IMG/VR virus record: IMGVR_UViG_3300029511_000167
Length of the DNA stretch: 64,000 nucleotides
Strand: one strand, 5' to 3'
Source: a virus
Lineage: Duplodnaviria > Heunggongvirae > Uroviricota > Caudoviricetes
Positions 22,108 to 62,986 of this stretch are shown here, piece by piece. The position numbers and the translations under genes are program-made. The notes beneath the pieces are model-generated. The model searched no databases and was not told the origin of the DNA. It worked only from the letters and a program-made list of their open reading frames with translations. The stretch's first letter is position 1; each line of letters begins with the position of its first letter.

Positions 22108-22533
22108 TTAAGACTGAACGGGTTTCCATTTCGCTCGGATGTCAAAAAAATCTCCAATGGCACGAATCGTAAGACCCAACTGCTTACTCAGCTGCTTCTT
22201 CTGCTGCAGCTGCATTTCTTCTGTTTCTGTACTGATTATATCTGAAAAGGTTCTGGCAAGGCTGCTTTCTGGCAGCTTATTCTTCTCTGCACAGGATACA
22301 ACCGAATTTAATACTTCTTTTAATCTCTTAATTAACGAATCCATCCATTGACTATCTTTGCTTTCCAGTACCAGATCCATTTCTTCTTCTGTCAGGTCTG
22401 AAAAACAGATGCTCTCCCATTTTCCACTTCGTTCTATTCTGAAGTATACACCATCCAAATCTCTATTCATAGTCTTTTTCCTTTCCCTGAAGCAAAACAA
22501 GATATGCTTCAAAATATGAGTCTGTATTTCCAT
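22108..22533 (-). CDS. hypothetical protein
   Basis: 141-aa ORF. It overlaps the 3' end of 22463..23014, so its start is uncertain. Confidence 0.4.
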   Translation of the reverse strand: MEIQTHILKHILFCFRERKKTMNRDLDGVYFRIERSGKWESICFSDLTEEEMDLVLESKDSQWMDSLIKRLKEVLNSVVSCAEKNKLPESSLARTFSDIISTETEEMQLQQKKQLSKQLGLTIRAIGDFFDIRAKWKPVQS

Positions 22534-23014
22534 AAAACAATTGATACAGACTATCGCAATAGTTCATCCACTGCTCATTAGTTCCAAAATTTGGAATCCA
22601 ATAATGATGTTCTTTCTCATCTTCTGGAATAGTTCCGGTTAAGGAATATTCCAGATACATGCGAAGAAGATAACGGCTGATATCGGCAGAATACGCAGAA
22701 GTTCCACGCTTTTTACCTAAGAGCTTCTCTATATGATGTTTCAGATAACTATAATTTAGATAAATGAACTGAGGCTTGTACGGATCTGATACACTACTAT
22801 CTTTCGGCTTATGAAGATGTCTGACTGTTTTTTCCAGGATTTGCCTTAATGGAAATAAGAACATTACATCAAAATTTTCTGGATTGCTTAGCTTATAGGG
22901 ACTTTCTTTTAACTGCTCGGCCAGAGATTTTGAAAGTGTCCCATATTCTTTGTCTTCTTTTGAAGTAATGCTTTTTAACATTTCTTCCATTATTTCTCTT
23001 AATTCGTTTTCCAT
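22463..23014 (-). CDS. hypothetical protein
   Basis: 183-aa ORF downstream of, and co-oriented with, the radical SAM gene. Confidence 0.5.
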   Translation of the reverse strand: MENELREIMEEMLKSITSKEDKEYGTLSKSLAEQLKESPYKLSNPENFDVMFLFPLRQILEKTVRHLHKPKDSSVSDPYKPQFIYLNYSYLKHHIEKLLGKKRGTSAYSADISRYLLRMYLEYSLTGTIPEDEKEHHYWIPNFGTNEQWMNYCDSLYQLFYGNTDSYFEAYLVLLQGKEKDYE

Positions 23015-23026
23015 TTTTTTCCTTTC

Positions 23027-23878
23027 TTATGTTCTGTTTTCCTGTTTCCATCCGTTTGAACAAACGCCATTTTCATAGAGAACCAACTGTTCATTACTTT
23101 TATTTTTTGTTAGCAGCCGCAGACTTTTCACAAAGTCAGCCGCAGAAGCCCGCAGCATTGGATTCACTAAAAAGCAGGAACGCTTAAGCGTTATCAAAAG
23201 CGGATGCCCTGGCAGCTGCAGCTGCGTCTGACACCCATATGCGAATGGACTTTTGTACTTCACACCGTATGCTTTTTCAAATGATACATAAAGGTCTTTT
23301 TCAAATTGAAGTTCGTTAATCTTAACATGCTGAACGCCACACTCTTCCATTTTTTTTAGAAATGCATCAATTTCTTCTTTGGTATCAATCTGACCTTTTA
23401 TGAGGTTTATTGATACCCGTACTTTGTCAGCATAAGCGTTGCAAATTTTCTTTGTTAAGGCAATCCTGTCATGTCTTGATGAAGCATGAAGAATGTCATT
23501 ATTTTTCTCTGGATCATAATGCTGCAAAGAAATATTAAGACCATCAATGTAGTCCATAATTTTTGTAAATGTATTCCAGTTATCTTCTACCGTCTTTGGC
23601 AAAGAAGTTGTAACATAGATATGATCCACAAAGGATCTGATTCCTCTTACATACAGCAGCAGCTCATGCGGCAGCAGAAGCGGTTCTCCACCAAGAACCA
23701 AAATCTCTTTTTTTCCTGTTTTAATGGTTTCCATGATTAGCCGGTTTACATCGGTTTTCTCGCCTTTCACTCCATTTCGCTCAATACAAAACGGACAGGT
23801 GTTATCGCACCTCTTTGTAAAGCGAACGTCCAGGCTATCTTTATAAAAACCATCACATGAATTATTAAATGAAATCAT
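23027..23878 (-). CDS. radical SAM domain protein (CX3CX2C; viperin/MoaA-like N-terminal layout)
   Basis: FTKRCDNTCPFCIE near the N-terminus and LVLGGEPLL. Nine Cys in total. The RBS aaaggag lies directly after the stop of the upstream micro-ORF. Confidence 0.7.
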   Translation of the reverse strand: MISFNNSCDGFYKDSLDVRFTKRCDNTCPFCIERNGVKGEKTDVNRLIMETIKTGKKEILVLGGEPLLLPHELLLYVRGIRSFVDHIYVTTSLPKTVEDNWNTFTKIMDYIDGLNISLQHYDPEKNNDILHASSRHDRIALTKKICNAYADKVRVSINLIKGQIDTKEEIDAFLKKMEECGVQHVKINELQFEKDLYVSFEKAYGVKYKSPFAYGCQTQLQLPGHPLLITLKRSCFLVNPMLRASAADFVKSLRLLTKNKSNEQLVLYENGVCSNGWKQENRT

Positions 23879-23889
23879 GGTACTCCTTT

Positions 23890-23967
23890 CTAATGGCAGC
23901 CGATAGAGTGGCAGCCGCAGCTGCGTTTGGCAGTTTTAATAATGAATTTTGTTAATTTTGTAAACAT
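23890..23967 (-). CDS. 25-aa Cys-rich micro-ORF (MFTKLTKFIIKTAKRSCGCHSIGCH), candidate precursor or leader peptide
   Basis: RBS aaggagacgact before ATG. Its stop is 11 nt from the radical SAM start (translationally coupled). The C-terminus is SCGCHSIGCH. Confidence 0.4.
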   Translation of the reverse strand: MFTKLTKFIIKTAKRSCGCHSIGCH

Positions 23968-23984
23968 AGTCGTCTCCTTATTTT

Positions 23985-24506
23985 TTAAATCATCATCAGA
24001 TGTCCTAATCTTTCATATCCGGCTTTTTCAGTCAGTTCTGCAAATTCAGGACAAGTATCAGTAAGATATGCAAACACCAATCCAGTAAAAGACTGCTGAA
24101 GGGTTCTGTGTTCCCTTGTAAACAGCATGGCTACCTCATACGGGTTATTACATTTAAATCGTGGTTCATGATAATAATCAGATGTCTCCGGATCAAAGTC
24201 TTTTGTTTGTTTGAAAATTACATTGTCTGTTTCTGTAAGCAGAAGTTTATTGCAAATCTTATATGCCTGCTCATTTCTGGCATCATAAGCGTATGGATTT
24301 TTAAACAGTGTTCCAATGGTTCGGATCCAGTACCATGAAATTTCATCCATTCTCTTCTTTGCAGTCTCAGCCGCAGCGATGGCTTGGATCATTTCTTTGG
24401 TTGACATGGAAAATGAGTTAACCATGTTTGAAATGGTTTTTGTCATAGTTTCCGGTTCATAATCAGTTTTTAACAGCTCTACAAAATTTGCTTCATATTC
24501 TCTCAT
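23985..24506 (-). CDS. hypothetical protein
   Basis: 173-aa ORF, first gene of the putative operon containing the micro-ORF and the radical SAM gene. Confidence 0.5.
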   Translation of the reverse strand: MREYEANFVELLKTDYEPETMTKTISNMVNSFSMSTKEMIQAIAAAETAKKRMDEISWYWIRTIGTLFKNPYAYDARNEQAYKICNKLLLTETDNVIFKQTKDFDPETSDYYHEPRFKCNNPYEVAMLFTREHRTLQQSFTGLVFAYLTDTCPEFAELTEKAGYERLGHLMMI

Positions 24507-24704
24507 AGTTTTCTTCCTTTCTTTTTCTCTCCTGGTTTCTTGTGTCTTACTTATTATGGAGCAGAATTGAATGGAACAAATGAACGTTGATTATTTCCTG
24601 TCCGTATCTTTATCCCAAAAAAGCTCCTAAAAGGAGCCTTATTTTTTGCGTATTTCTTAGAAATTCAAGACGCAATTTTTGCGCATAGTTGGCATTGTTA
24701 ATGA

Positions 24705-27764: not shown

Positions 27765-28158
27765 TCTCTCTCATGTTTCCCTGCAGGGAATCTTTAAGCT
27801 CCATAGCAATGTCATCTGGATTTTTGTTTAAAAAGTTCTTAGCAGCCAGCTTAATGCCATTTGGCGTCTGTTCGATACGAACTTTTGCAACTGCGTCTAC
27901 ATCCACATTAATAAAGTCATTGGTTGGAACCGGTTCTCCTGTTTTAATATCGACTGTCATCTGCCCTAAGTACAGGCGATCCAGTCTCTCTAAAAACGGG
28001 ATTCGGATGCCGGAACGGCCAATCAGGATTTTCGGTTCTTTTTTAAGTCCAGAAATAATAAATGCCTTATCCGGTGGTGCCTTGACATACCCAAGGGCGG
28101 CAATAATAATTAAAAAGATAATGAGTGCTGCACCAAGCAGCCAGAATGAAATTTTCAT
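27765..28158 (-). CDS. floT: flotillin (FloT/YuaG-like) exon 1, N-terminal TM helix plus start of SPFH domain
   Basis: MKISFWLLGAALIIFLIIIAALGYVKAPPDKAFIISGL matches the flotillin N-terminus. RBS aaaaggagaaaagcat. Confidence 0.75.
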
Positions 28159-30622: not shown

Positions 30623-32803
30623 TTATTTTTCTTCTGTTTTCTGTTTTCTTTTTTCATAAAGTTTCCTGACATGGCAGATATTGCTGCTTGGATCGTTAAG
30701 CTGAATGATTCCTTTTTCCAGTAATTCTTTTGCAAATACAATGAATCTGAAATCATCTGCTGATAATGCAGCCATATTTAGCAGCTGCAGCCGCCCAAGC
30801 AGGCCGCGTCTGCGTTTCCATGTCTTATAGTAGTTTAATTTGAGTTTGAACATGAAGTGGTTTGTATCTTCAAGCACAAACCCTTCAATGGGCTTTCCAT
30901 TATAGGTGTATGTACCATTCTGATCCGATTTTAGCAGGTTCTGATACCAGGCATCAAATTCATCGTAGGTGTTAAACTTAAATACCAGCTTTTTCGGCTG
31001 CAGATGGTAGGCAGCTGCAAAGGCCAATAGCTCTTCATAGCTTTTTTTCTGGAAATCAAACTCGTTTTTAATGATATCCAGAAGATAGACCTCGCTGTCT
31101 TCATAATCGATGATATGCGGGTCGTTTACCTGGTCCACACACTCAAAGACCAGCGTTTCAGAATGTTCTTTCAGATACTTCTTTAATGATTCTATCGTTT
31201 CTTCTGAAAGTTTCTTATAAAGCATATCTTTAAAACAGCCTGCGGCTTTTCCCGTCGGATCTGATTTTGTGGTGATAAACAGCTCATCTTTTTCTTTGTT
31301 AAAGCTTACCATACCAAGAAATCCATTTTCTTTAACATACGCTTCTACTGGAAATACCAGTTTTTCTTTCAGATTATGATACATGGTTTCTTCTACTTCG
31401 TCTACAGCGAAAAACTTATCATATCCACGACAGACCAGTTCTTCTGTTTTTGTATTAAGGTAAAGTCCACGGGCCTTGACCGTTCGTTCATTCCATACCC
31501 GGTTATTGAAAGCTTCCCTTGAAAAATTAAAAGAAGAAATCGAATCAAACTTTTTTTCTTTAATGTACGGGTCTTTTCTTAAGGTTTCAATTGCATCATG
31601 AACTGTTGAAAAATCAGTTTCCGGCTTTCGGTATACGGTGTTTCTAATTTCAGTTGTTTCTATCCCAGCAGCAGAGACAACAGCAGCCCGCAAGAAGCCG
31701 CCAAGTTCTACTTTTCCTTCTAGATTGTAGTTTCGATTGGTAGAATGAACTGGATAGCCAAAATTTCGATGTCCGTGAATCTGGTAGATATGATTGGGCA
31801 TGGATGCATCAAACATTTCTTCGGCTTCTTTTACATCAGGATAACCGCCAACACCGTGGATCATCTGTTCGGTAGAAAGAAAGATTGGATTTCCAGGAAT
31901 GGTACTTACACCGCCATGGCAGCCAAAGACAACTTTATCGTGATAGCGGTAGTATACACACTGAGCAAGCTTTCGATAAAAAATACGTACTTCTTTTTTT
32001 GAAATACCTGCTGCTTCCAGTTCTTTTGCCGTATGCTCCTCAAATTCTTTTGACGGAGTATGCTCATTATGTGCCCATAGGTGTAACCACCGCTCATGAT
32101 TTCCTTCCAGCAGCAGAACATTTTCTCTTTTTGAAAGGTTCATCATAAGTTTTAAAGTGTTCACATTATCTGGGCCGCGATCCAGATAGTCGCCATGGAA
32201 AATGTAAAACTCATCTTCTTTCAGTCCGCCTTTAAGATAACACTGCAATGCGTCAAAGCACCCGTGAATATCTCCAATGTGGTGGATCTTCTTATATTTA
32301 CTGAAATCCAGCGGCATAAGCAGCAGTTTTTCAAACTCATCTGGCTTGATAAATGGAAAATCTGCATAAAACGGCAGCTGCAGCCACTTACAAAACTTTT
32401 CCATCACCTCATCTGGCACTTGTTCTACCTGGCTGCGGCTACGGTTGCGGCGCATCGCATCTGCGAGGCTAATATCCGTAAAATCCACACCTATAATGCG
32501 GTAGCGATAGGTTTTTGCAAGGGTGCGATACTTATTTACATCTTTCTGAAGAATATTAGTGGCGTCAATGATTAAAAATTCACCTCGCGCCATTCTCTTT
32601 TCTGCAATCTTTGTTAGAAGCTCCCACACTTCCTTATCGTTCATTCGGGATGTTTTAATCCTTCCATCAATACCCAACACTGGGCCTTCATAAAGTCTTC
32701 GAATAGTATCTGAGCTTAATGTATAAGGCTCCAGCTGGTGTTCTTTTATCCAGGTTGTTTTTCCAGAAGCTGGAATTCCTCTAAGTAATACTAGTGTTCT
32801 CAT
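30623..32803 (-). CDS. pnkp: polynucleotide kinase-phosphatase Pnkp with C-terminal ligase-like nucleotidyltransferase domain (RNA end-healing/sealing enzyme)
   Basis: N-terminal P-loop LRGIPASGKTT, as in a 5' kinase. Central calcineurin-type phosphoesterase motifs IGDIHGC, GDYLDRGP and GNHE. C-terminal covalent-NTase-like motifs EGFVLED and FKLKL. No hen1 gene is adjacent. Confidence 0.75.
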   Translation of the reverse strand: MRTLVLLRGIPASGKTTWIKEHQLEPYTLSSDTIRRLYEGPVLGIDGRIKTSRMNDKEVWELLTKIAEKRMARGEFLIIDATNILQKDVNKYRTLAKTYRYRIIGVDFTDISLADAMRRNRSRSQVEQVPDEVMEKFCKWLQLPFYADFPFIKPDEFEKLLLMPLDFSKYKKIHHIGDIHGCFDALQCYLKGGLKEDEFYIFHGDYLDRGPDNVNTLKLMMNLSKRENVLLLEGNHERWLHLWAHNEHTPSKEFEEHTAKELEAAGISKKEVRIFYRKLAQCVYYRYHDKVVFGCHGGVSTIPGNPIFLSTEQMIHGVGGYPDVKEAEEMFDASMPNHIYQIHGHRNFGYPVHSTNRNYNLEGKVELGGFLRAAVVSAAGIETTEIRNTVYRKPETDFSTVHDAIETLRKDPYIKEKKFDSISSFNFSREAFNNRVWNERTVKARGLYLNTKTEELVCRGYDKFFAVDEVEETMYHNLKEKLVFPVEAYVKENGFLGMVSFNKEKDELFITTKSDPTGKAAGCFKDMLYKKLSEETIESLKKYLKEHSETLVFECVDQVNDPHIIDYEDSEVYLLDIIKNEFDFQKKSYEELLAFAAAYHLQPKKLVFKFNTYDEFDAWYQNLLKSDQNGTYTYNGKPIEGFVLEDTNHFMFKLKLNYYKTWKRRRGLLGRLQLLNMAALSADDFRFIVFAKELLEKGIIQLNDPSSNICHVRKLYEKRKQKTEEK

Positions 32804-33499: not shown

Positions 33500-34690
33500 C
33501 TACATTTTTTCTGGTATTTCCTTGGAAAATTTCTTATTAAAAATCTTGTTTTGCAAGGACACTGGCGATATTGGATAGGAAATGTCATTTAAGATCTCAT
33601 AGCTTTCATGAAACTTATCACACATTTCTTTCGCCTGCACTTCATTAAATGCTTCGAACTTAATTTTTAAGTCAAATCGTCCTTCTCTGATAAGTGCTGG
33701 ATCCAATCGGTCTATATGGTTCGTTGTGGCTAATATGATTGTATTTTCTGGAGACATTGGACCATCCAGAAACTGAAGCATTGCATTTACCTTTGCTTCG
33801 TCTTCTTTTGATGATTCTTCCCTGTCCTTTGGCAGCAGCTCATCAAGTTCTTCCATAACAACGATGTTAATTCGTTTTCCCTGTTTGAAATCCAGATCCT
33901 GGCTGTTCTGATAGATGTATCGCAAATCCCGCTGCAGTAGATCGATGTTTTTTGACAAATCCAGGTATGTCACCTGATTCTGGCATTCATAGGAATCGCT
34001 GGCATAGCTGATAATCGCTTTTACGACACTTGATTTTCCAGTTCCTGGTTCTCCATATAGAAGAATTCCAAGCTTATACGGGATTCCATAATGCTGGAAT
34101 GTTGCATGGTTTTTTCTAAAATTGTCCAGGGAGGTTAAGATCTTCTTTTTATCTTTTAAAATAATCTCATCAAAGGACTTATACGGAAAATATATGTATC
34201 CACCACCTGACTGATAATTCGCACTGATGAATCGTCCCTGGTCTCTGTTTTTCTTCATTTTTGCTTTAATGAAGGTAATGAGCCGATGGGCGTGATAGTA
34301 GGCATTCAGTCCAATAAAGGTTACTGACACATAGCTCAGTTCTTCTCTATATTTACAGTCATCTTCCAGCTCTCTTCTATCAAACCGGATGCTGCAATAA
34401 GTCATATCATCCAGATAGAATGAAAATCTGGTTGGCCTTAATGATACTTCAAGCTTTGATGGATTTCCGCTTGCGATATCCAGGTAGGTATTTCCATCCC
34501 GGTTTCGCTTCTTATAAACATGCTTAATGTATTTTTCTACATATCTTGAATATACTTCGCTGCTGAAATTTACCGTAGCGCAAAAGCGTCGACTTGCTTT
34601 AGAACGAACATAAACCGCAGCTGCCTTTCCGGCTGCAGATGCAGAGGCTGCTGTATATTCTTTCAATAATTTAGATATGAGTGGATTCAA
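33500..34690 (-). CDS. AAA+ ATPase (BCS1-like architecture: N-terminal domain plus single AAA module)
   Basis: Walker A GILLYGEPGTGKSS. Sensor/arginine-finger region ATTNHIDRLDPALIREGRFD. Confidence 0.7.
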   Translation of the reverse strand: MNPLISKLLKEYTAASASAAGKAAAVYVRSKASRRFCATVNFSSEVYSRYVEKYIKHVYKKRNRDGNTYLDIASGNPSKLEVSLRPTRFSFYLDDMTYCSIRFDRRELEDDCKYREELSYVSVTFIGLNAYYHAHRLITFIKAKMKKNRDQGRFISANYQSGGGYIYFPYKSFDEIILKDKKKILTSLDNFRKNHATFQHYGIPYKLGILLYGEPGTGKSSVVKAIISYASDSYECQNQVTYLDLSKNIDLLQRDLRYIYQNSQDLDFKQGKRINIVVMEELDELLPKDREESSKEDEAKVNAMLQFLDGPMSPENTIILATTNHIDRLDPALIREGRFDLKIKFEAFNEVQAKEMCDKFHESYEILNDISYPISPVSLQNKIFNKKFSKEIPEKM

Positions 34691-37684: not shown

Positions 37685-37954
37685 CTACATCATTACTTTT
37701 CCGGTCAGGGAATCGGACTCGTTTGCCACAAAGTATGCAGCTGCTTCTGCTACATTAATGTAGATGCGCATGGATTTTAACTTTTCAGAATATGCAGCAG
37801 CAAATGCAACGGCAGCTTTTTCTTCGATCTCTTTCATATCGATCTGGCGTCCATTTAACTCAAGCACTACGGTATTTTTGGGTTTTACTGCTCTTTTCCT
37901 GGTTTCTTTTTCTTTCTTCTCTTCTTTCTTCATCTCTTTTGAAATATCAATCAT
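37685..37954 (-). CDS. hypothetical protein
   Basis: 89-aa ORF. Motif agtatg at 37993-37998. Confidence 0.45.
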   Translation of the reverse strand: MIDISKEMKKEEKKEKETRKRAVKPKNTVVLELNGRQIDMKEIEEKAAVAFAAAYSEKLKSMRIYINVAEAAAYFVANESDSLTGKVMM

Positions 37955-38633
37955 AGTAATTACCTTCCTTTTTTAATTTTATTTTTTCTTTAGTATGAAA
38001 GATGAAAGGAAAAAATTGAGAAATGATGTATCAAAAATCCTGATACTTTTAAAAAATGAAAGAAAAAGGGAGAGGAAACTCCAGGAAAGATAAGAAGGAA
38101 TATTTTACAGTAGCTGCAAATGCGGATGCGGTGGCAGATGGGAAAGGGAATCGGCAGCAGGTACGGGTGTAACTGTTAAACAGACGCAGACGAATGAGGT
38201 GGGCAGCTGCAGCTGGGAGGCAATTGAGATTGAAACTGAAAAAGGAAAAAGAAAGAGGAAAAATGGATGGATTCGCAGTGTAAGGAAAAAAAGAGAACTG
38301 AGGTGGTCACATTGGGTGCTAGGTTTATGAAAGGAAAGAAAATGAAAAAGGAAAGAAGGAAAAAGAAAAAAAGGAAGAAAATATATCTTTTTCGGTAAGT
38401 CTATACATTGTGACGAATTTTCATTTTTTTGGTCTCTTTATTACTTATTACGCATTTTTTCTTCCTGCCTCATAAAATCACTTTTTTCCTGCGTATTTTC
38501 GTGAGTTTCTTCTCTTTTTTACAGGGAAAAATGTGCGGAAAAAAGTATTGAAAAAAGGCCTGTAAAAAACAGACCCTTTTAACAATATCTCCTAATTTAG
38601 CTGTTCTACTTTTCCTATCTCCTATTCTCTTTT

Positions 38634-40831: not shown

Positions 40832-41455
40832 ATGAAAAATGATATGCGGCCGCAGCTGCGTTTTCCTGGGTTTGCAGATGCGTGGGTAGAGAAGAAGCTG
40901 GGCGAGGTAGGCAATACTTTTACTGGTTTATCAGGTAAAACAGCTGATGATTTTGGGCATGGAAATGCTTCATTTATAACTTACATGAATGTTTATTCAA
41001 ATCCAGTGGCCAACCCAGAAATGGTTGGACAAATAGAAATAGATCCACGGCAAAAAGAAGTAAATGTGGGAGATGTATTTTTTACGACTTCATCAGAAAC
41101 ACCCGAAGAAGTTGGAATGTCAAGTGTTCTAAAAGAAAAAAACGGTATAATGTATCTTAACAGTTTTTGTTTTGGTTTTAGACCATCCCTGACATTTGAT
41201 TTAGATTATCTTGCATATTTGCTTCGCTCAGAATTTGTACGGAGAAAGATCAAAATTTTGGCTCAAGGAATTTCCAGATATAATATCTCAAAAAACAAAA
41301 TGATGGAAATAGAAATTCAATATCCTACTCTTCCAGAGCAGCATCTCATTGGAACGTTCTTCAGCTCCCTGGATCGCCTTATTGCCCTTAATAAGCACAA
41401 GCTCTCGGCCATGAAAGAATATAAAAAGTCCATGTTGCAGCGAATGTTTGTATAA
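40832..41455 (+). CDS. hsdS: type I restriction-modification specificity subunit HsdS, half-size with a single target-recognition domain (orphan)
   Basis: N-terminal LRFPGFADAW..LGEV and C-terminal conserved PTLPEQHLIGTFFSSLDRLIALNKHKL...SMLQRMF blocks. No hsdM or hsdR in the window. Confidence 0.65.
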   Translation: MKNDMRPQLRFPGFADAWVEKKLGEVGNTFTGLSGKTADDFGHGNASFITYMNVYSNPVANPEMVGQIEIDPRQKEVNVGDVFFTTSSETPEEVGMSSVLKEKNGIMYLNSFCFGFRPSLTFDLDYLAYLLRSEFVRRKIKILAQGISRYNISKNKMMEIEIQYPTLPEQHLIGTFFSSLDRLIALNKHKLSAMKEYKKSMLQRMFV

Positions 41456-44615: not shown

Positions 44616-44649
44616 ATGAAAAATAAAAAAATGAAAAGGAAAAAATTAT

Positions 44650-47965: not shown

Positions 47966-48041
47966 GATAAACAAAAATACAAACAGCAGCCGAAGCTACC
48001 GCAGCAGCTGCAGCAATGGCAGTTAATTTTAATTTTGTCAT
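47934..48041 (-). CDS. small hydrophobic protein (35 aa) whose 3' end is formed by the IS left end
   Basis: RBS aggagattgtgccc. Translation MTKLKLTAIAAAAAVASAAVCIFVYQKTSRTLPVL. Motif agtatg at 48090-48095. Confidence 0.3.
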   Translation of the reverse strand: MTKLKLTAIAAAAAVASAAVCIFVYQKTSRTLPVL

Positions 48042-48409: not shown

Positions 48410-50491
48410 TTAGTATCCTGGCAACCAGTAAACAAATAAAGTGATTGGATCCGACAGGCTGTCTCCTGCATTGTTGTTTAACACGATTCTGTATTTTGTA
48501 TTATGAATGCTTCTGACTGCATGGTCAATCTCCAGATAGAAAGTTCCTGCTTCCGCCTCGTCTGGATAAGTCCGGTACGTTACTCCATTTGCTTCGGTTC
48601 TGGTTTCACCTTCTGAAAGTAAATCATTCCAGGTTGTGCCGTCTGTTGAAATCTGCCAGGTCCAGTGGTTGGTGGATCCGTCTTCTGCCACTCCGCCGCC
48701 TGTATATGCGGCTATTTTTGTTTTGGAGTATGGATACTGAAGTTTCCCTTCCTGAATTAAGTCAGAACTTAGTGGTCCGTATTGTTTGATATACTCTGCT
48801 TCTTCTACTCCCAGATATTCAATAACTTCCGGATTTGCAGTAGTATCAACAATTACCGGTGGCTTTGCAATCCAGTGTGCATAGAGAGTGTGTTCTCTTG
48901 TTGCATTTACGATACTTTCTGCCGTAATTTTTTTGCCACCAGCGGCTTCTGTATACCAGCCATCAAACTGGTAATCCAGTAATTCCGGTTCCGGCAGAAT
49001 TCCGTATGGCTGCAATGGAATGACGATAATGCTGTCCTTGCTGCAGCTTGGCTCTGCATTTGATGCGGCCGGTTTATTTAAATCAAGTGTTACTTTGATT
49101 TCGTTTAATCTACAGTAGCGATAAACCGTTGCGCCAGTTACGGTTACTTTTGCAGCAGTTTCAATGTTTCCATCCATATTTAATCGATACGGTCTGTCGT
49201 CTCCATCAATATAGAAAACGTGGTTTGTATCTGGTTTTAACTTCTGGTCAATATCGCTTCCTTTTACAGTTGTATCATAATTAATATTCTTCTCAAACCG
49301 TTTCAGTTCCTTCTTTTGTGTCTCATCATAAACGATATAGGTAACCGGATACTGATTTACACTCCATTTTGCATAAAGATTTACAGTTCCATTATCATCC
49401 GTTGTCAGATTTTTAACTGCCTGTTGATCCGAATAATTGGTTCCGGTACCTACTTCATTGCTGTTCCATCCAATAAAGGAATGTCCTGTCTTTGCAAATC
49501 CATTGGGTGTCAATGTTTTTTCTGTTTCATAAGTATGAACGGAATATGCCGTACTTCCGGATGTAGCTCCATTTCCATTATATTTTATAGTGTAGGAGAT
49601 ATAGCGAACAAAGATCACATGGTTACACCGGGTACATTTCTTTTTAATCTGACCATTCTCGCTGTATTCCGCTCCATAGTTATGCCCTAATGCAGAGGTC
49701 GCAGCAGACGCAACGTAGCCGCAAGTGCCGCATTTCCGGTACTGAGTTCCACCGACGGTACAGGTTGCCGTATTTCCATACCAGCTGCCAAAGCCATGAG
49801 CGACGGACGACCATGTAAGTCCACACACATTACAGTATTTCCAATGGTTGGAGCCATTGTACTGCCATTTCCAGTTACCATTTCGATTATGGCTTGTTGA
49901 CCAGGTTCCGCACTGTGTACAGGCTCTATAATGATTTTCTCCAGAGGTTAACCAGCCGCTGACGCATTGACCTGGGTGGCTGCAGCTGGTGCCGACGTTG
50001 TTGAAATATTTGATAGTTCTTCTGTTATAATAATCAGAATTTTTTGCATTTAAATTTGACGTCCAAATATATAATGTATAATTGGCACCAGTATTGTATA
50101 ATGCCCTACCGCCAATGGACATGTTTCCATTTCGTCTTAAATAGATATTGGTTGCAGCAGTTCCATAAAACGCCTCAGATCCTATACTGCTAACATTTGC
50201 AGCGACATCAATGCTTCCTGTAATTCTGCCACGTAAATGATACCACGGATATGCACTGTCTACACTTGCAGCATCACACGTTCCGTCTCCACCACTTCTC
50301 TGACGAATATACAATGTCCCGCCTGTAAAGTTCCACTCAATCCCGTCCCATGCACTGTAATATCCTTCGCCTGCTTCTGCTTCTATCCTGCTACTGCTGA
50401 CGGTAAGAAATAAAATTAAAATCAACATAGATAGGATTTTAAGCCAAACCGGATCATCCCGCATATATTTTCTTTTTTTATTTTCTATCAT
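48410..50491 (-). CDS. secreted surface protein with Listeria-Bacteroides (Flg_new) type repeats
   Basis: Signal/TM region LKILSMLILILFLTVSSS. Repeats such as YTIKYNGNGATSGS...TLTPNGFAKTGHSFIGWNS. Terminator agatgacacagtgatttgtgtcatct downstream. Confidence 0.6.
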   Translation of the reverse strand: MIENKKRKYMRDDPVWLKILSMLILILFLTVSSSRIEAEAGEGYYSAWDGIEWNFTGGTLYIRQRSGGDGTCDAASVDSAYPWYHLRGRITGSIDVAANVSSIGSEAFYGTAATNIYLRRNGNMSIGGRALYNTGANYTLYIWTSNLNAKNSDYYNRRTIKYFNNVGTSCSHPGQCVSGWLTSGENHYRACTQCGTWSTSHNRNGNWKWQYNGSNHWKYCNVCGLTWSSVAHGFGSWYGNTATCTVGGTQYRKCGTCGYVASAATSALGHNYGAEYSENGQIKKKCTRCNHVIFVRYISYTIKYNGNGATSGSTAYSVHTYETEKTLTPNGFAKTGHSFIGWNSNEVGTGTNYSDQQAVKNLTTDDNGTVNLYAKWSVNQYPVTYIVYDETQKKELKRFEKNINYDTTVKGSDIDQKLKPDTNHVFYIDGDDRPYRLNMDGNIETAAKVTVTGATVYRYCRLNEIKVTLDLNKPAASNAEPSCSKDSIIVIPLQPYGILPEPELLDYQFDGWYTEAAGGKKITAESIVNATREHTLYAHWIAKPPVIVDTTANPEVIEYLGVEEAEYIKQYGPLSSDLIQEGKLQYPYSKTKIAAYTGGGVAEDGSTNHWTWQISTDGTTWNDLLSEGETRTEANGVTYRTYPDEAEAGTFYLEIDHAVRSIHNTKYRIVLNNNAGDSLSDPITLFVYWLPGY

Positions 50492-52715: not shown

Positions 52716-52955
52716 TTATTCTTCAATTAACAATGGAAAATTTTCAAAGATCACTGTTTTTTGTTCCAGTTTTTCCCATTCCTTCTTCCACTTTCCTTCT
52801 TTGATTTCCTTAATGATATGACATCCATTCCCACCCGCTGCGGCTGCGGTGCTTGCCTGTGGTGTTATTCCTGACATAGCTGCAGCTGCAATGAGAGTTC
52901 CAATTATCTGTTTCTTGTATTTTCTGATAAGCTTTCTTTTTAATCTTTTGAGCAT
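52716..52955 (-). CDS. hypothetical protein
   Basis: 79-aa ORF with a STAAAAGGNGC segment. Confidence 0.4.
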   Translation of the reverse strand: MLKRLKRKLIRKYKKQIIGTLIAAAAMSGITPQASTAAAAGGNGCHIIKEIKEGKWKKEWEKLEQKTVIFENFPLLIEE

Positions 52956-53675: not shown

Positions 53676-53994
53676 AAAGGAACATGAAAAAATGAAAGCA
53701 GAACGAGCCATTGAAAAAATGTTGGTAGCTAATATCAGACATATCCGACCGCAGACAGCGGAATGGTTAACTGAAGGTGGCTATCAAAATATGATGTATG
53801 AAAAACGGGATGGAGATTTATACGGATGGTTTCTTTCCATCAATTTGGATGAACCTGACTCATATACATCAGCGGACATTCCGGATGACTTGCGAGACGT
53901 GTTTGCAGCTGCTGCCGCAGAGCATTGCTGGTGGGTTTGTCTGGATCCAGAAGGATTTGAAATTGATTCTTTACTGCTATATGATTGGGATTAA
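53665..53994 (+). CDS. hypothetical protein
   Basis: 109-aa ORF. Terminator aaaaagagccttatggctcttttttt downstream. Confidence 0.45.
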   Translation: MESRKEHEKMKAERAIEKMLVANIRHIRPQTAEWLTEGGYQNMMYEKRDGDLYGWFLSINLDEPDSYTSADIPDDLRDVFAAAAAEHCWWVCLDPEGFEIDSLLLYDWD

Positions 53995-54028: not shown

Positions 54029-55084
54029 TTAATTATTGATGATGAATAAATAATTTTCCTTCAGTTCTCTTTTGGCTTTTTGAAAACAAGATTCTGGAAT
54101 TTGAAAATCTTCGTAGGCAGCTTGAATAATATGTTCCATTTCTGTCAGGTTTGGAAGTTCTATATGAAATGAGTCTGTTAATTCCAGCTGTTCTTTCCTG
54201 GTATTTGCAAATGGTTTAATTTCTTTTGTACCATTCCATCCAAGACAGGATCCTGAGTCAAATAACGGAGCAAATTTTAAAACCTCTAACGTATTAGAAT
54301 TTCTAATTATCCCAAAATTTTTCTCATGACGATCTGTATTTCCAATGAGAATATCAAATACAATCATCTGGTTTAATTCTTTTTTGAATCCGAGTTCGGA
54401 AAATGCCTGGTATAATGCTACTCCAGATGCTTTTCTTCCTTTTCCAATTTGATTTGCATTAATAAATTCTTCTCTATCATTTTTTATAAAACTTTTGCAG
54501 CCGCAAACCATTTCATCCACATCGTTTAATTTTACAGAAAAGTATTCTACCGCCTGCAGCTGCATCAGCTTTGCAATCGCAGATGCGGCTACTTCGTTTG
54601 CGCTGAGCAAATTTTTTCCGTCTGCATGTGGTCCATAATTTCCAAATTTAAGCAAAATCGAAGTATTATCATGTAGTATCCATTGCTTTTTCAAGTCTCC
54701 GTCTGTTGTTAGGTCTGGAGTATCAAACGTTCTTCTATAACGACTGCAATCAAACGGATTCTGATGAAAATTAATATCTTCCCAGGATATTTCCTCGCCT
54801 ACGTTTTTCATCCAGTAGCAATCGGTTAAACTTGCCATATGACCGTTTTTCAGCGCATGTTCCAGTGGCAGCACATCCTTTAAACTTGCAATCTCCTGCC
54901 GTGTATCAGGAATACTTCTCATCGCATTCCAGGCGGAAAGAAGATGCGGCTGCAGCTGCGGATATTCAGTATAAGTCCCAACCGGTAGCAGACTTCGATT
55001 TAACACAGAAGCAGCTGCAATTTTGCGGCCGCAGACGCGGATAGCGGCAACCGGTGTGTTCTTGTGCATGAGTATACGTTCCAT
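54029..55084 (-). CDS. HipA-like Ser/Thr kinase family protein
   Basis: VFDILIGNTDRHEKNFGII matches the HipA catalytic motif. Paralog of 19739..21205. Confidence 0.7.
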   Translation of the reverse strand: MERILMHKNTPVAAIRVCGRKIAAASVLNRSLLPVGTYTEYPQLQPHLLSAWNAMRSIPDTRQEIASLKDVLPLEHALKNGHMASLTDCYWMKNVGEEISWEDINFHQNPFDCSRYRRTFDTPDLTTDGDLKKQWILHDNTSILLKFGNYGPHADGKNLLSANEVAASAIAKLMQLQAVEYFSVKLNDVDEMVCGCKSFIKNDREEFINANQIGKGRKASGVALYQAFSELGFKKELNQMIVFDILIGNTDRHEKNFGIIRNSNTLEVLKFAPLFDSGSCLGWNGTKEIKPFANTRKEQLELTDSFHIELPNLTEMEHIIQAAYEDFQIPESCFQKAKRELKENYLFIINN

Positions 55085-58360: not shown

Positions 58361-59059
58361 ATGAGAAGAAAATATTTTATTGACACAGAAAATGTAGGAG
58401 ACGCCTGGATTTCATTCCTTAAAAAGGCAGAGCCGGATGATACCTTCATCCTTTTTATTTCCAAGTACACAAAACTTTCTTATAGAGATATGAGAACCAT
58501 TATGGACTCTGGAAAAACTGGACAGATTTCTTTCCATGAAGTCTACACCCAGGGAAAAGGTGGAAACGCAATGGACTATACGTTATGCAGCTCCATGCTT
58601 GAGTCTATCTATCATGATCCAGAATCCGAATTCGTTATTCTTTCTTCGGATCATGATTATGATGTCTTCTTATCAGAGCAGGTGGAACGTGGAATTCATG
58701 CCTCCCGCATCTCCTTTGTACCGGAGTTTGAAGAAATTTCTTATGCAGCTGCAGCCGAAGACGCAAATGTGGATGCTATTTTACCTCCAGTTCCTTCTCC
58801 TGCTACTCTTGCTCCCACTCTTAAACCAGCTGTTTCCGCAAAACAGATTCGAAAACTTCTAAAAAAAGAATTGGAAGACGGATATTATAAGCGTTTAACT
58901 TCGTCCTTTGATATTCAGGCTTTTTGCCAGGCAATTATCGCATGTCAGGGAGATGTTTCAAAGGCGATTAATAAGCTGGAAAGTGGAAGCGGGAAAAATA
59001 ATCTACTCTCCTGCCTTGTATCAAAGAAAGTGAGAAAGAAAATTGAAGTGTTGTTTTAA
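58361..59059 (+). CDS. NYN/LabA-like (PIN-fold) domain protein
   Basis: N-terminal YFIDTENVGDAW. RBS aataggaggttttt. A terminator aggtgctacttcgcacct follows. Confidence 0.55.
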   Translation: MRRKYFIDTENVGDAWISFLKKAEPDDTFILFISKYTKLSYRDMRTIMDSGKTGQISFHEVYTQGKGGNAMDYTLCSSMLESIYHDPESEFVILSSDHDYDVFLSEQVERGIHASRISFVPEFEEISYAAAAEDANVDAILPPVPSPATLAPTLKPAVSAKQIRKLLKKELEDGYYKRLTSSFDIQAFCQAIIACQGDVSKAINKLESGSGKNNLLSCLVSKKVRKKIEVLF

Positions 59060-59073
59060 AAAAAATAAAGGTG

Positions 59074-59226
59074 CTACTTCGCACCTTTTTTCTTTTGCAT
59101 TTCTTTCTTTGTATCAAGATCCGGTCTCCAGCGATCGCAGAGCATCTCCTTTTCCCAGCTGCAGCTATATTCATGATCGCAGTTCAGACAAGATTTCTCA
59201 AATGTTGTTTTTGATGTGTTAGACAT
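59074..59226 (-). CDS. small Cys-rich protein (50 aa)
   Basis: RBS aaggagaaaaaatat. Translation MSNTSKTTFEKSCLNCDHEYSCSWEKEMLCDRWRPDLDTKKEMQKKKGAK. Motif agtatg 40 nt upstream. Confidence 0.45.
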   Translation of the reverse strand: MSNTSKTTFEKSCLNCDHEYSCSWEKEMLCDRWRPDLDTKKEMQKKKGAK

Positions 59227-60683: not shown

Positions 60684-61751
60684 TTATGGCTCTTTTCTTA
60701 AATCGTATAGGACAAACTCAGTCATCATATCCGAAATTTTCTTCATATTCGGTTCTTTTGGAAGTACAGAATGCTCAAATGCATAAGCGACTGCTTTTTT
60801 AATATCTTCTACCATCTGAAAATATTCGTTTCGCACATGGCCGTCTGAGCTTAAAAACATTCCATTAAGAATATCTGTGAACATTGGAATGTCTTCATTC
60901 CTGCAAATCCTGACTTTTCCTGTTTCCAGTGTTTCAATACTGGTTAACATACCACGAATCGTATGCATCATCAGCTTATTGAGTTTTCTCCTTTCCCTTT
61001 CCAGATCTTCTTCCTTTGAACTTGCTTCCTTTACATTTTCTTTCTTTTCAAAATTTCCACTGATATGCTTTAGATCTCTGGCAACTTCGAAAAAATCTTC
61101 GACTGATACATCTTGCAAGGTCATGGATGCGATTCTTATTTTTTCTTCTGCTTCTGGGATTTTAAATTGAATCTTCATATTATCTGATTGGATGGTTGAA
61201 TATCTGGTATGAAAATGGCAGGTCGCATTGTTTAGAATACTGAGCTTTAAGCTATCTTTTTCTTTTTTCTTTTCAGCCAGTTTTCCGAGCTCAGCAAGTT
61301 CTATTCTTCGCAGCTGCGACTGCACATAGCCCATGCAGCTGCGATAGATTCCGTTTGCGCAGAGAAAATCGGTGTGCTTTTCTATTAATTCTGTTCCAAG
61401 GTCTGATAAGTACAGGTACTGATCCTTTTCTTGCCCTATGTACGCCAAAATGTCAGGATTTCCTTTTGAAAGCAAGTGTAACATTTTCCGGTATGAATGA
61501 ATAACAGTATCTGATGAGCTGAATGTCTTTGTTTCCCAATCAGCCGCAGCACCATTCGCATACGCCGGTTCCAAACCAACGATTCCGCGCACATCGATAT
61601 CGCTTTCAGAATAATTCGTTCCATACGCATAAGATCCGCTGACGCAGAGCAGATGCAGGTGGTTTTTAACTTTTTCAGATTCCCGGAATTCCTGGTATTC
61701 TTTTCCTGTTTGAATTAAATTTTTAATTTCGTTTAATGTGTTATTATCCAA
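60684..61751 (-). CDS. nucleotidyltransferase-fold protein (Pol-beta-type GS...DxD motif)
   Basis: LLCVSGSYAYGTNYSESDIDVRGIV matches the minimal NTase signature hG[GS]x9-13Dh[DE]h. Confidence 0.55.
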   Translation of the reverse strand: MDNNTLNEIKNLIQTGKEYQEFRESEKVKNHLHLLCVSGSYAYGTNYSESDIDVRGIVGLEPAYANGAAADWETKTFSSSDTVIHSYRKMLHLLSKGNPDILAYIGQEKDQYLYLSDLGTELIEKHTDFLCANGIYRSCMGYVQSQLRRIELAELGKLAEKKKEKDSLKLSILNNATCHFHTRYSTIQSDNMKIQFKIPEAEEKIRIASMTLQDVSVEDFFEVARDLKHISGNFEKKENVKEASSKEEDLERERRKLNKLMMHTIRGMLTSIETLETGKVRICRNEDIPMFTDILNGMFLSSDGHVRNEYFQMVEDIKKAVAYAFEHSVLPKEPNMKKISDMMTEFVLYDLRKEP

Positions 61752-61757
61752 ATAATT

Positions 61758-62171
61758 CTATTCCTTTCTTTTCGCATCATCCAGGGTAAACCCATAAAAA
61801 TCATCCTTCGGTCGCTCTTCATTATAGCCCGTAAATGGCAGGGCTATTCCTTTTTTCTTCAAAAGCTCGCAGAAATGATAATCACAAGCTTCCGGATATA
61901 ATCTTTTGTCTGGAATATAGTCTTCGTTTTTTTCAATGGCAATTACCGACATATCTTTTGGTGTTGGTACACGATCTGTATAGTCCATAAAATAGGTTAC
62001 TGCATGGATTTTTTCATTCTTTAAATACACATGAAAGGTCTTTCCTTTACATGTATAGCCATATAACAAGGTTCGATCGCGTAAAAACGGCCTTAAATCT
62101 TTTGCACAGATAATTCTTTCTCTTATATTGTCCGTTGTATTTTCTATGAATCCTAATTCTTCTCTAGTCAT
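61758..62171 (-). CDS. hypothetical protein
   Basis: 137-aa ORF. Confidence 0.45.
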   Translation of the reverse strand: MTREELGFIENTTDNIRERIICAKDLRPFLRDRTLLYGYTCKGKTFHVYLKNEKIHAVTYFMDYTDRVPTPKDMSVIAIEKNEDYIPDKRLYPEACDYHFCELLKKKGIALPFTGYNEERPKDDFYGFTLDDAKRKE

Positions 62172-62174
62172 ATT

Positions 62175-62351
62175 CTAATTTTCCTTTCCTGATAATAGTA
62201 CAACTTTATCACTATGTCCAATATCTGCTATTTCCAGCTCTGAAAAACTTCGAATATTGAGGAATTTTCCATTATCTCCATCCGAAAAAATGAACTGAAT
62301 TTCAAAATCCGGGTACTCCTTGCAGATTTTTTCTAACTCTTTTCCTTTCAT
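62175..62351 (-). CDS. small hypothetical protein (58 aa)
   Basis: RBS ggagtcagt. Translation MKGKELEKICKEYPDFEIQFIFSDGDNGKFLNIRSFSELEIADIGHSDKVVLLSGKEN. Its stop lies 4 nt from the next start. Confidence 0.4.
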   Translation of the reverse strand: MKGKELEKICKEYPDFEIQFIFSDGDNGKFLNIRSFSELEIADIGHSDKVVLLSGKEN

Positions 62352-62360
62352 ACTGACTCC

Positions 62361-62639
62361 TTAATCATTCCACCGTTCTTTAGTATTTTCCAGAAAAATC
62401 ATTCCATCTTTTCTAATTCCGCCACAGTTTTCGGCTATTTCAGTTCTTGCTGTAATAAATTCATCCAGATTGTTTTTGAAATACTGAATTGCGTTCTGTT
62501 CAGATTCAAATTTCTTATCATGCTCCCAGAAAAAATATCTCTGATTCGTACAGAAAAAAGAATCTGTATCAATGCAGTAAGCTATGATCCATGTAGCATG
62601 TTCCGTTGAAAAATCTTCTTTCATTTCTTGATATCCCAT
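62361..62639 (-). CDS. hypothetical protein
   Basis: 92-aa ORF. Confidence 0.45.
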   Translation of the reverse strand: MGYQEMKEDFSTEHATWIIAYCIDTDSFFCTNQRYFFWEHDKKFESEQNAIQYFKNNLDEFITARTEIAENCGGIRKDGMIFLENTKERWND

Positions 62640-62653
62640 TTCAGCTCCTTTCC

Positions 62654-62986
62654 TTAGCTGATTTCAATCAGGTGCTTGATTGCCTGTGCTGCAGCTGCAT
62701 AATCAACTGCAGTGCCATAGCAGATCTGATATCCGGTTTTTTCTTGCAGATTGATTAATTCTGAATACGAAAACATATCATTCCATAAATTAATAGCTTC
62801 TTCATACCCTGCTTCATAATCTATACTGCTTCTCTCATCTGTACCGTTATCGTATCCATTCTCATACCCTTCATCGTATCCAGTGGCGTATCCTTTTTGA
62901 TATGAACTCTTTAAAATTTGACTCAATTTTTTCTTGTTTTGATATCTCACATTCATTTGCGTTATTCCCTTCCTTTTATGGCTCAA
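62654..62986 (-). CDS. hypothetical protein with GY-repeat segment
   Basis: 110 aa with a YATGYDEGYENGYDNG repeat. Confidence 0.45.
   Translation of the reverse strand: MSHKRKGITQMNVRYQNKKKLSQILKSSYQKGYATGYDEGYENGYDNGTDERSSIDYEAGYEEAINLWNDMFSYSELINLQEKTGYQICYGTAVDYAAAAQAIKHLIEIS

Follow-up and report, generated by a model that had tools for sequence, protein, structure and literature searches.

The 64,000-nucleotide stretch of IMG/VR record IMGVR_UViG_3300029511_000167 (here called the window, meaning the whole stretch that was analysed) carries 26 copies of the 8-base palindrome GCAGCTGC, from position 1112 to position 62691. GCAGCTGC is a genuine, element-specific highly iterated palindrome (HIP). 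The window is part of a discrete insertion of about 305 to 307 kb with 37% GC, which lies between purL and the PBECR4/argCJB region of a human-gut Lachnospiraceae chromosome, and the octamer did not occur in the host DNA sampled. The signal is independent of reading frame and lies at the DNA level; it is not a by-product of polyalanine coding. By analogy with HIP1 of cyanobacteria, we tentatively propose, at a probability of roughly 40%, that GCAGCTGC may be recognised by a sequence-specific DNA modification or repair system that acts on the element. The kind of signal is already known; what is new here is a HIP-type palindrome with a different word, in a Firmicute and confined to a mobile element. 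In the literature searched, the octamer came up only in primers and eukaryotic motifs, and no report of it as a genomic signal was found.

Excess of the octamer over null models

For an evaluation of the enrichment, the choice of the null model is critical. Base composition predicted 0.27 sites, which gave a 96-fold excess, and 100 dinucleotide-preserving shuffles contained a mean of 0.54 and a maximum of 3 copies (48-fold). Codon-aware null models were based on the 85 open reading frames (ORFs) called in the window, 72 of them on the minus strand, with 85% of the sequence coding. When synonymous codons were shuffled inside genes, 8.5 ± 2.0 copies were retained, with a maximum of 16 in 500 shuffles (3-fold, z = 8.6). 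Permutation of codons left 4.1 ± 1.1 copies (6-fold). Thus, protein sequence and codon usage account for about one-third of the copies, and the remaining excess is highly significant. The synonymous null was counted as conservative because GCAGCTGC may itself shape codon usage.

With Markov models, the excess was 48-fold at order 1, 3.2-fold at order 4, and 1.1-fold at order 6. Higher-order models swallow the excess because the sub-words are enriched too, and such absorption is expected equally if the 8-mer inflates its sub-words or if the sub-words inflate the 8-mer. The fold enrichment of GCAGCTGC therefore depends on the null chosen, and the value of about 60-fold given by an earlier, sequence-only reading of the window holds against composition alone. 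That reading had counted 14 copies between 22205 and 62695. The over-representation was real and so were the listed positions, although the coordinates were displaced by 0 to 12 nt; however, 12 copies had been overlooked, namely, the five before 22205 and those at 30781, 31011, 34617, 37737, 52882, 53905, and 54556, and the sites cover the whole window. The four copies of the 15-mer GCRGCYGCAGCTGCG (23212, 23911, 40846, and 54946) and the two NotI sites (40846 and 55025) that it described were found again.

GCAGCTGC is the top 8-mer of the window, and its family headed the ranking of 6-, 7-, and 8-mers when these were compared with the synonymous-shuffle null, with no strand bias. The same sites occur in many independent public assemblies, so an assembly artefact can be discounted.

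The copies are spread over the frames. Twelve are read as Ala-Ala, 10 as Gln-Leu, and 1 as Ser-Cys (23 of the 26 in ORFs), and 3 lie outside ORFs of at least 60 amino acids (aa), at least 2 of which may fall in very small ORFs. A frame-resolved null was run before one gene-call correction, which moved the site at 22206 from the Ser-Cys to the Gln-Leu frame. It gave 9 observed versus 0.82 expected copies for Gln-Leu, 2 versus 0.28 for Ser-Cys, and 12 versus 4.5 for Ala-Ala; the excess was smallest in the Ala-Ala frame and about 11-fold out of frame. GCWGC showed no excess in frame 0 and a 2.5-fold excess in frames 1 and 2. Gln-Leu dipeptides were written CAG-CTG in 22 of 46 cases (7 expected). 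In addition, Ala-Ala-Ala tripeptides numbered 36, compared with 4.3 expected (8-fold), which suggests that the proteins were shaped by the DNA word and not the reverse. In the 7.9 kb that lies outside long ORFs and RNA genes (32.8% GC), there were 28 GCWGC sites versus 3.9 expected (7-fold) and 3 copies of GCAGCTGC versus 0.02. Frame independence and a signal at the DNA level had both been proposed from the letters of the window, and both were confirmed.

Word family and anatomy of the sites

Enrichment over composition was graded, from 2.6-fold for GCAG/CTGC through 5.1-fold for GCWGC (252 sites) to about 50-fold for the octamer. GCWGCWGC occurred at 60 sites, divided among GCAGCTGC (26), GCTGCAGC (18), GCAGCAGC (9), and GCTGCTGC (7), so that the palindromic forms outnumber the nonpalindromic ones. 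Mixed GCA/GCT units were favoured over pure repeats within the tracts. GCAGCTGC is the peak of this GCWGCWGC/(GCN)n word family. Eleven sites of the sister palindrome GCTGCAGC overlap tracts listed for GCAGCTGC, and the other 7 are free-standing. Among the neighbours of the family, GCGGCTGC, GCTGCTGC, and GCAGAYGC were likewise enriched. GCAGAYGC/GCRTCTGC was about 10-fold enriched (22 sites versus about 2.2) and often stood beside (GCN)n tracts, for example, at 34640, 40880, 54590, and 55035. GCNGC-rich patches of a similar kind were present in the 3' region of the host purL and in the first 400 bp of the element's purL-side end.

The flanks follow a period-3 consensus, GC-W-GCAGCTGC-W-GC-N-GC, in which the GC pattern decays over about 20 nt; GC content and GCNGC density were elevated for about 40 to 80 nt on either side. 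The recurrence of GC dinucleotides 3, 6, and 9 nt apart was 3.0-, 2.6-, and 2.0-fold, respectively, versus 1.7-, 1.2-, and 1.3-fold in the host. Each G/C position of GCAGCTGC was 72 to 84% fixed given the other seven bases, and the enrichment peaked on the exact octamer. Variants at one position were enriched 1- to 7-fold when a GC pair was broken and 15- to 29-fold when a W position was changed. The palindromic symmetry ended at 8 bp: the first flanking shell was complementary at 10 of the 26 sites, and the outer shells were at the 26% background. This is expected of a dimeric recognition site and not of a hairpin, and a hairpin or longer palindrome was ruled out. The sites were evenly distributed along gene length, with no preference for promoters or intergenic DNA, and no Rfam structured RNA overlapped them. 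Neither strand skew nor periodicity, both of which the sequence-only reading had suggested looking for, was found in the window; the coefficient of variation of the spacing was 0.96, compared with 0.95 ± 0.17 for random placement.

Mobile elements are expected to purge GC-rich palindromes. Several palindromic hexamers were indeed depleted in the window, including TGATCA (6 versus 32), CTCGAG (0 versus 8.2), GCTAGC (0 versus 7.2), GAGCTC (3 versus 12), TCGCGA (1 versus 7.6), and AGTACT (1 versus 7.5), and CTAG stood at 0.15 of expectation. GCAGCTGC, CAGCTG, and CTGCAG had the opposite sign to restriction-site avoidance. Since other palindromes are avoided, the element is under restriction pressure, and the accumulation of GCAGCTGC is therefore selective. 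Vsr-type depletion of GTWGC/GCWAC was not evident in the window.

The word belongs to a 305-kb insertion

The window has a GC content of 37.5%, compared with 47 to 50% for the flanking chromosome, and its proteins were found on contigs of 3.2 to 3.5 Mb. On contig_1093 of ERZ27273576 (3,512,663 bp), the insertion extends from about 2,881,700 to 3,189,100, with purL about 307 kb from the window's left junction. To the left of the window, there is a ClpC/ClpS pair and then, within about 70 to 340 bp, the PBECR4 gene, transposases, a choline-binding protein, and argC-argJ-argB. Junctions were placed about 70 to 340 bp left of window position 1 (14636–14905 on contig L020) and at 13939 on contig L108. 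The empty site, in which purL is followed directly by the PBECR4 gene, was seen as well ("Clostridiaceae bacterium Marseille-Q3526"; contigs L109 and L110). On the host side, ArgJ is 100% identical in Marseille-Q3526, and the nearest named relatives are Otoolea and [Clostridium] symbiosum. The idea of an AT-rich mobile element was therefore correct, as the insertion is missing from an otherwise identical strain.

A separate contig of 305,152 bp (contig_839 of ERZ27273484) covers the insertion from one end to the other. The distance between Pnkp and the contig end equals that in the integrated copy, which shows that the insertion is a discrete, roughly 305-kb unit. At its purL-proximal end, tnsA-like, tnsB, tniB, and tniQ genes lie behind AT-rich direct repeats and are arranged like Tn7 at attTn7. 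At the other junction, only one 10-mer (CGAATTAGTT) matches these repeats, in inverted orientation. If the insertion is a single transposon, it would be exceptionally large for one. No close relatives of the element were found in IMG/VR, the INPHARED phages, or the PLSDB plasmids, and the best phage matches were SPbeta-like at 41%.

The sample comprised about 83 kb of the element, or about 27% of its length, and 28.9 kb of host DNA. The host DNA contained neither GCAGCTGC nor GCTGCAGC; about 12 copies of GCAGCTGC would be expected there at the density of the element and 2.6 by the host's own order-3/4 Markov model. The density in the window was 0.41 per kb, or 1 per 2.5 kb. Sister species had 2 copies in 105 kb, and in other Clostridia (about 1.1 Mb of arg loci and 1.1 Mb of Pnkp-bearing loci) the word occurred at the Markov expectation, 0.011 to 0.025 per kb. 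Palindromic 8-mers stayed at or below 6 copies and 22-fold in all 91 comparison loci of 15 kb or more. The thirds of the window held 5, 11, and 10 copies, at 29- to 78-fold. The enrichment runs on to the right of the window, with 1 to 4 copies in 9.4 kb in four strains, and 10 copies were present in 22 kb of another strain.

The shorter words inside the octamer behaved differently. GCWGC occurred at 3.9 per kb in the element versus 4.4 in the host, CAGCTG at 0.88 versus 1.08, and CTGCAG at 0.67 versus 0.76. The sole form that differed was CAGCTG with G...C flanks (26 of 56 in the element and 0 of 31 in the host). GCAG/CTGC, GCWGC, and CAGCTG were enriched 2- to 3-fold in the host also. A host-wide oligonucleotide bias, which had been named beforehand as a possible refutation, is thus true only of these shorter words and was rejected for the octamer.

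Origin and persistence of the sites

Related elements were located through Pnkp homologues. Two of them (L191 and L192, 55% identity) had no GCAGCTGC in 22 kb each and have Pnkp, PARG, RlaP, RNase H, DUF6557, and radical-SAM genes in common with the window. The word was also absent from the closest outgroup (L193, 70% identity, 34% GC). When Pnkp was aligned with 11 homologues, none of its four tracts required a gap, and all four fell where conservation is poor. For example, FAAAY in the window corresponds to FADEF, FVERF, or IAERF in homologues, and TGG CTG CAG CTG CCG corresponds to CGT TTA CAA CAA CCA in the outgroup. Ungapped tracts that are absent from the outgroup therefore arose by point substitution in this lineage, in some cases with a change of amino acid, and not by triplet slippage.

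Among strain variants at 0 to 7% divergence, 151 of 155 GCAGCTGC site comparisons were intact, compared with 140 expected from all 8-mers, the strains being close and not independent. There was some turnover, including exchanges between GCATCTGC and GCAGCTGC and changes from GCAGCTGC to GCAGTTGC. The copy number (length) of the tracts was constant among strains.

In the related element L191 (ERZ16268257 scaffold_126), the top words were TCCGGA (19 versus 2.9) and TTCCGGAA (6 versus 0.43). These were considered as an alternate iterated palindrome of that element. However, they were within the ordinary range of the comparison loci, and CCGGA words are common in this host too; the signal is probably an ordinary Lachnospiraceae signature.

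A proposed recognition word

GCWGC is an established target of 5-methylcytosine (m5C) methyltransferases and of restriction; enzymes for GCWGC/GCNGC include TseI, ApeKI, M.GCDGC-type m5C methyltransferases, and the BisI family. GCAGCTGC holds two overlapping GCWGC sites per strand. With this and with the precedent of the HIPs, the HIP-like interpretation is the one we prefer. A methyltransferase or nuclease target was also among the candidates of the sequence-only reading, and it is a plausible one. In such a scheme, point substitutions, both synonymous and amino-acid-changing, would have written GCWGCWGC/(GCN)n words into permissive positions of the 305-kb element, in every frame as well as outside long ORFs. 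A dimeric enzyme system acting sequence-specifically on the element's DNA would have GCAGCTGC as its preferred word. Copies might accumulate through selection for a minimum density of the mark or, alternatively, through site-directed short-patch repair biased toward creating GCAGCTGC. We infer a protein that reads GCAGCTGC, an involvement of methylation, and a benefit from the word.

Several observations weigh against this proposal. In the roughly 83 kb of the element that was read, no DNA methyltransferase or other protein of matching specificity was found, and no methyltransferase for the internal sequence of GCAGCTGC was found in the 29 kb of host DNA; the sampling of both was limited. GCAGCTGC was less frequent at the far end of the element, which bears the Tn7-like genes. 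The random spacing means that nothing points to a regulated density. Deviations at one position fell mostly on positions 3 and 6 (33 sites, 16-fold) and not, as in HIP1, on positions 1 and 8 (20 sites, 5-fold), and the family looks more like GCNGCNGC than like one strict 8-mer. The G/C positions in GCWGC were 2.7% variable versus 3.9% elsewhere, an excess of conservation that is not statistically significant (P = 0.10) among strains that are not independent. In addition, m5C sites often show C-to-T and T-to-C hypermutability, and no excess of such changes was found at GCWGC cytosines among strains.

The only suggestive gene was that of a DUF559 PD-(D/E)XK endonuclease (43013–43795), which weakly resembles methyl-directed nucleases. 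A ParB/DGQHR/DUF262-like protein with a ParB fold is encoded at 41958–42932, with weak matches far below curated cut-offs. Both genes lie in a defence-like cluster (40832–45075) together with HsdS and a truncated Wadjet JetD (43896–44615, covering residues 123 to 347 of 350). The HsdS specificity subunit is of strain-dependent length (203 to 409 aa) and sometimes split; no HsdM or HsdR was visible.

A more specific version, which we consider improbable, is that GCAGCTGC might be a symmetric self-identification mark of the 305-kb mobile element, possibly Tn7-like, read by an element-encoded system to tell its own DNA from that of the host. The reader could be either a methyltransferase working together with a nuclease (methyl-directed or mismatch) or a nuclease that stops at GCAGCTGC. 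If this were true, no earlier HIP-type iterated palindrome would have been linked to a mobile element instead of a chromosome, and the element would be a tractable system for the long-unsolved question of HIP function.

The presence of the word on the island and not on the surrounding chromosome, together with a close outgroup without it, provides a natural contrast inside one cell. The selective build-up of one palindrome points to a sequence-specific DNA transaction undescribed for gut Firmicute elements.

Alternative explanations

The main rival of the HIP-like interpretation is a neutral by-product, in which an element-specific, context-dependent mutation or repair bias toward GCW triplets and self-complementary GCA-GCT would produce the word with no reader and no function. 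The hierarchical enrichment absorbed by high-order Markov models, the decaying period-3 flanks with their enriched neighbour words, the random spacing and uniform placement along genes, the interchange of family members among strains, and the nonsignificant conservation excess are all consistent with it, as is the sharing of short words with the host, which is expected from a shared replication environment. However, the host DNA in the same cell has no octamer despite an equal density of the inner words, the closest outgroup element is of similar GC and lacks the tracts, and the palindromic arrangements (26 and 18) exceed the nonpalindromic ones (9 and 7). Amino-acid-changing substitutions were fixed, with an 8-fold enrichment of Ala-Ala-Ala, and we know of no mutational process with an 8-bp palindromic target. 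On balance, we regard a neutral origin as rather unlikely. Microsatellite slippage, through in-frame insertions of GCW units into tri- or hexanucleotide tracts, would fit the period-3 tracts of up to 17 nt (e.g., GCAGCTGCAGCTGC) and the tolerance of multiples of three in any frame; it is contradicted by the ungapped alignments in Pnkp, the only gene tested, as well as by the constant copy number among strains and the preference for mixed units, which makes it highly improbable. Least credible of all is an artefact of coding (poly-Ala or Gln-Leu codon usage) or of a general host oligonucleotide bias. CAG, CTG, and GCA are preferred codons, the synonymous shuffle retains about one-third of the sites, and the host shares the shorter words, but as a whole explanation this was refuted: the observed count lies far beyond the maximum of the codon-aware null, also named beforehand as a possible refutation, the excess is greatest out of frame and extends outside long ORFs, and the host DNA has no copy.

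Two other roles for the word had been suggested by the sequence-only reading, and neither fared well. In one of them, the sites would form an array bound by an element-encoded protein for nucleoid organisation, silencing, or partition (ParB-, KorB-, or Noc-like), which would compact or mark the element. Such an array could account for an element-specific palindrome at about 1 per 2.5 kb; the protein with the ParB fold might be its reader, and a nucleoid-structure role is among the current proposals for HIP1 (PMC5861425). It is nevertheless quite improbable, because the symmetry ends at 8 bp, whereas parS, KorB, and Noc sites measure 13 to 16 bp, and because the sites are randomly spread, mostly intragenic, and not clustered near the ParB-like gene. 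A Chi-like signal, with a helicase-nuclease of the host or the element degrading DNA until GCAGCTGC is met and the element thereby spared, would suit a word that is frequent in the element and absent from the sampled host DNA, and a palindrome can be read from either direction. The density of GCAGCTGC, about one per 1 to 2.5 kb, is comparable to that of known Chi sites. Known Chi sites, however, lack symmetry, are skewed between strands, and show enrichment in the core genome of the host. In the window, GCAGC and GCTGC occurred 127 and 125 times on the plus strand, although 85% of the genes lie on one strand. The parts of the element that were read contained no gene resembling AddAB or RecBCD. 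We therefore consider a Chi-like function very unlikely.

Sites and other features of the window

The sites are listed in Table 1.

Table 1. Copies of GCAGCTGC and free-standing copies of GCTGCAGC in the window
Word	Position	Tract or flanking sequence	Frame	Gene or ORF (strand)	Remark
GCAGCTGC	1112..1119		Ala-Ala	ClpC-like gene 1-2397(-)	
GCAGCTGC	9682..9689	GCAGCTGCAGC	Ala	ORF 9625-9990(+)	
GCAGCTGC	14629..14636	GCGGCAGCAGCTGCAGC (17 nt)	Gln-Leu	ORF 14123-15016(-)	
GCAGCTGC	18381..18388		Ala	ORF 18245-18727(-)	
GCAGCTGC	20136..20143		Ala	ORF 19739-21220(-)	
GCAGCTGC	22206..22213	GCTGCAGCTGC	Gln-Leu (EEMQLQQ)	Gene 22108-22470(-)	
GCAGCTGC, 2 overlapping	23212..23225	GCAGCTGCAGCTGC	Gln-Leu	Radical-SAM gene 23027-23878(-)	In 15-mer
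GCAGCTGC	23917..23924			Outside long ORFs; possibly in 25-aa Cys-rich ORF 23890-23967(-)	In 15-mer
GCAGCTGC	30781..30788	GCAGCTGCAGCCGC	Gln-Leu	Pnkp 30623-32803(-)	Absent in 70%-identical outgroup
GCAGCTGC	31011..31018		Ala	Pnkp	FAAAY; outgroup FADEF
GCAGCTGC	32374..32381		Gln-Leu	Pnkp	RLQLP; outgroup RLQQP, encoded CGTTTACAACAACCA
GCAGCTGC	34617..34624		Ala	AAA-ATPase gene 33500-34690(-)	
GCAGCTGC	37737..37744		Ala	ORF 37685-37954(-)	Sole strain-polymorphic site (GCAGTTGC in 4 loci)
GCAGCTGC	38203..38210	GCAGCTGCAGC		Outside ORFs of ≥60 aa	
GCAGCTGC	40852..40859	GCGGCCGCAGCTGCG	Gln-Leu	Start of HsdS fragment 40832-41455(+)	NotI site just before
GCAGCTGC	48004..48011	GCAGCAGCTGCAGC		37-aa ORF 47934-48047(-)	Upstream of tnpB
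GCAGCTGC	52882..52889		Ala	ORF 52716-52955(-)	
GCAGCTGC	53905..53912	GCAGCTGCTGCCGC	Ala	ORF 53665-53994(+)	
GCAGCTGC	54556..54563		Gln-Leu	HipA-like gene 54029-55084(-)	
GCAGCTGC	54952..54959	GCGGCTGCAGCTGCG	Gln-Leu	HipA-like gene 54029-55084(-)	
GCAGCTGC	55011..55018		Ala	HipA-like gene 54029-55084(-)	NotI site 14 nt downstream
GCAGCTGC	58745..58752	GCAGCTGCAGC	Ala	ORF 58361-59059(+)	
GCAGCTGC	61310..61317		Gln-Leu	RlaP-like gene 60684-61751(-)	
GCAGCTGC	61335..61342		Ser-Cys	RlaP-like gene 60684-61751(-)	25 nt from 61310 site
GCAGCTGC	62691..62698	GCTGCAGCTGC	Ala	ORF 62654-62986(-)	
GCTGCAGC	2277..2284				Free-standing
GCTGCAGC	17320..17327				Free-standing
GCTGCAGC	20677..20684				Free-standing
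GCTGCAGC	49040..49047				Free-standing
GCTGCAGC	49979..49986				Free-standing
GCTGCAGC	Starts 54949				Free-standing; adjacent to GCAGCTGC at 54952
GCTGCAGC	59158..59165				Free-standing

RNA-repair and ADP-ribose genes are located in or next to the window (Pnkp at 30623–32803, PARG, RlaP, and RNase H). Macro, Thg1, and TK genes lie to its right, and the island also has HipA-like kinases and Fic. Ten tRNA genes were found, comprising a nine-gene cluster (11507–12564) and tRNA-Ser(CGA) at 41840–41921; the tRNA at 12171–12240 was detected by Rfam and missed by ARAGORN. A flotillin (FloT/Band_7) gene is interrupted by a group II intron of about 736 nt that has no ORF (27029–27764, minus strand; Rfam D1-D4 171 bits, D5-D6 46 bits), which leaves ORFs 25779–26966 and 27748–28188. 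Strains L197 to L199 have an intact 547-aa flotillin gene without the intron insertion.

A second repeated word, TTAGTATG (CATACTAA on the coding strand), occurred 17 times versus 1.7 expected. It lay nearly always in short intergenic gaps, about 15 to 35 nt upstream of the GGAG ribosome-binding site of minus-strand genes (e.g., 9533, 18762, 28197, 35110, 37084, 37995, 39151, 40242, 48093, 50545, 57832, 59268, and 60582). It probably serves as a conserved −10-type promoter element in the island; TCATACTAAG is also present upstream of the host-side PBECR4 gene. The candidate Cys-rich peptide of 25 aa (MFTKLTKFIIKTAKRSCGCHSIGCH; 23890–23967, minus strand) is encoded 12 nt upstream of the radical-SAM gene, an arrangement possibly like that of a precursor and maturase of a ribosomally synthesized and posttranslationally modified peptide. 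The context of the IS605-type TnpB gene (46741–47850, minus strand) was kept in all 23 of the 23 contigs read. When TnpB copies were used as probes for other chromosomal sites, every copy was in the same context; the gene is apparently single-copy, fixed in the island, and not actively spreading.

Comparison with known systems

HIPs have a 30-year history that is almost entirely limited to cyanobacteria, and what they do is debated (proposals include methyl-directed repair, nucleoid structure, and transformation). HIP1 (GCGATCGC) and the alternate HIPs of cyanobacteria are described by Elhai (2015; PMC4390886) and by Xu, Lawrence, and Durand (2018; PMC5861425). Each of these GC-rich palindromes occurs in all frames, is conserved between genomes, and comes with a methyltransferase for its internal sequence; the causes put forward for them include biased repair, selection for methyl-mark density, and nucleoid structure (PMC4390886, PMC5861425). 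GCAGCTGC resembles them as a GC-rich 8-bp palindrome that is over-represented tens of times (48- to 96-fold, within the 15- to 300-fold range of HIP1-type words) in all frames and outside genes, beyond what peptide and codon usage explain. As with HIP1, the identity of the word is lineage-specific, and it contains the target of a known methyltransferase class. HIP1 sites also tend to be better conserved between genomes than control sequence; for GCAGCTGC, the excess of conservation among the close, nonindependent strains compared above was not significant. It differs from HIP1, which is chromosome-wide, in its confinement to a Firmicute mobile island. The word itself is another one, at a lower density and inside a degenerate (GCN)n tract. 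Deviations in HIP1 are biased to the first and last positions, whereas those of GCAGCTGC are concentrated at the internal W positions, and no cognate methyltransferase was identified in the DNA sampled. HIP1-type words are also spaced periodically at 10 to 90 kb; within the 64 kb of the window, the local spacing of GCAGCTGC was random.

As a pair of overlapping GCWGC sites with the family skeleton GCNGCNGC, GCAGCTGC also resembles the targets of GCWGC/GCNGC restriction-modification systems. Such targets are normally avoided in mobile elements, whereas GCAGCTGC has accumulated, and no restriction-modification gene of this specificity was seen in the DNA read. Chi (RecBCD/AddAB) shares with it the short GC-rich word, the kilobase-scale density, and the distinction of one DNA from another, but not the palindromic form, the lack of skew, or the absence from the sampled host. 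ParB-family arrays (parS, the KorB operator OB of RK2, and Noc) are likewise palindromic sites repeated across a large replicon. Those sites are longer, however, there are between a few and a few dozen of them, and they lie in clusters or near promoters, unlike the random and mostly intragenic copies of GCAGCTGC. The DNA uptake sequences and uptake signal sequences (DUS/USS) are similarly short words present about once per kb in coding and noncoding DNA; they are nonpalindromic, chromosome-wide, and tied to competence machinery, none of which applies to GCAGCTGC.

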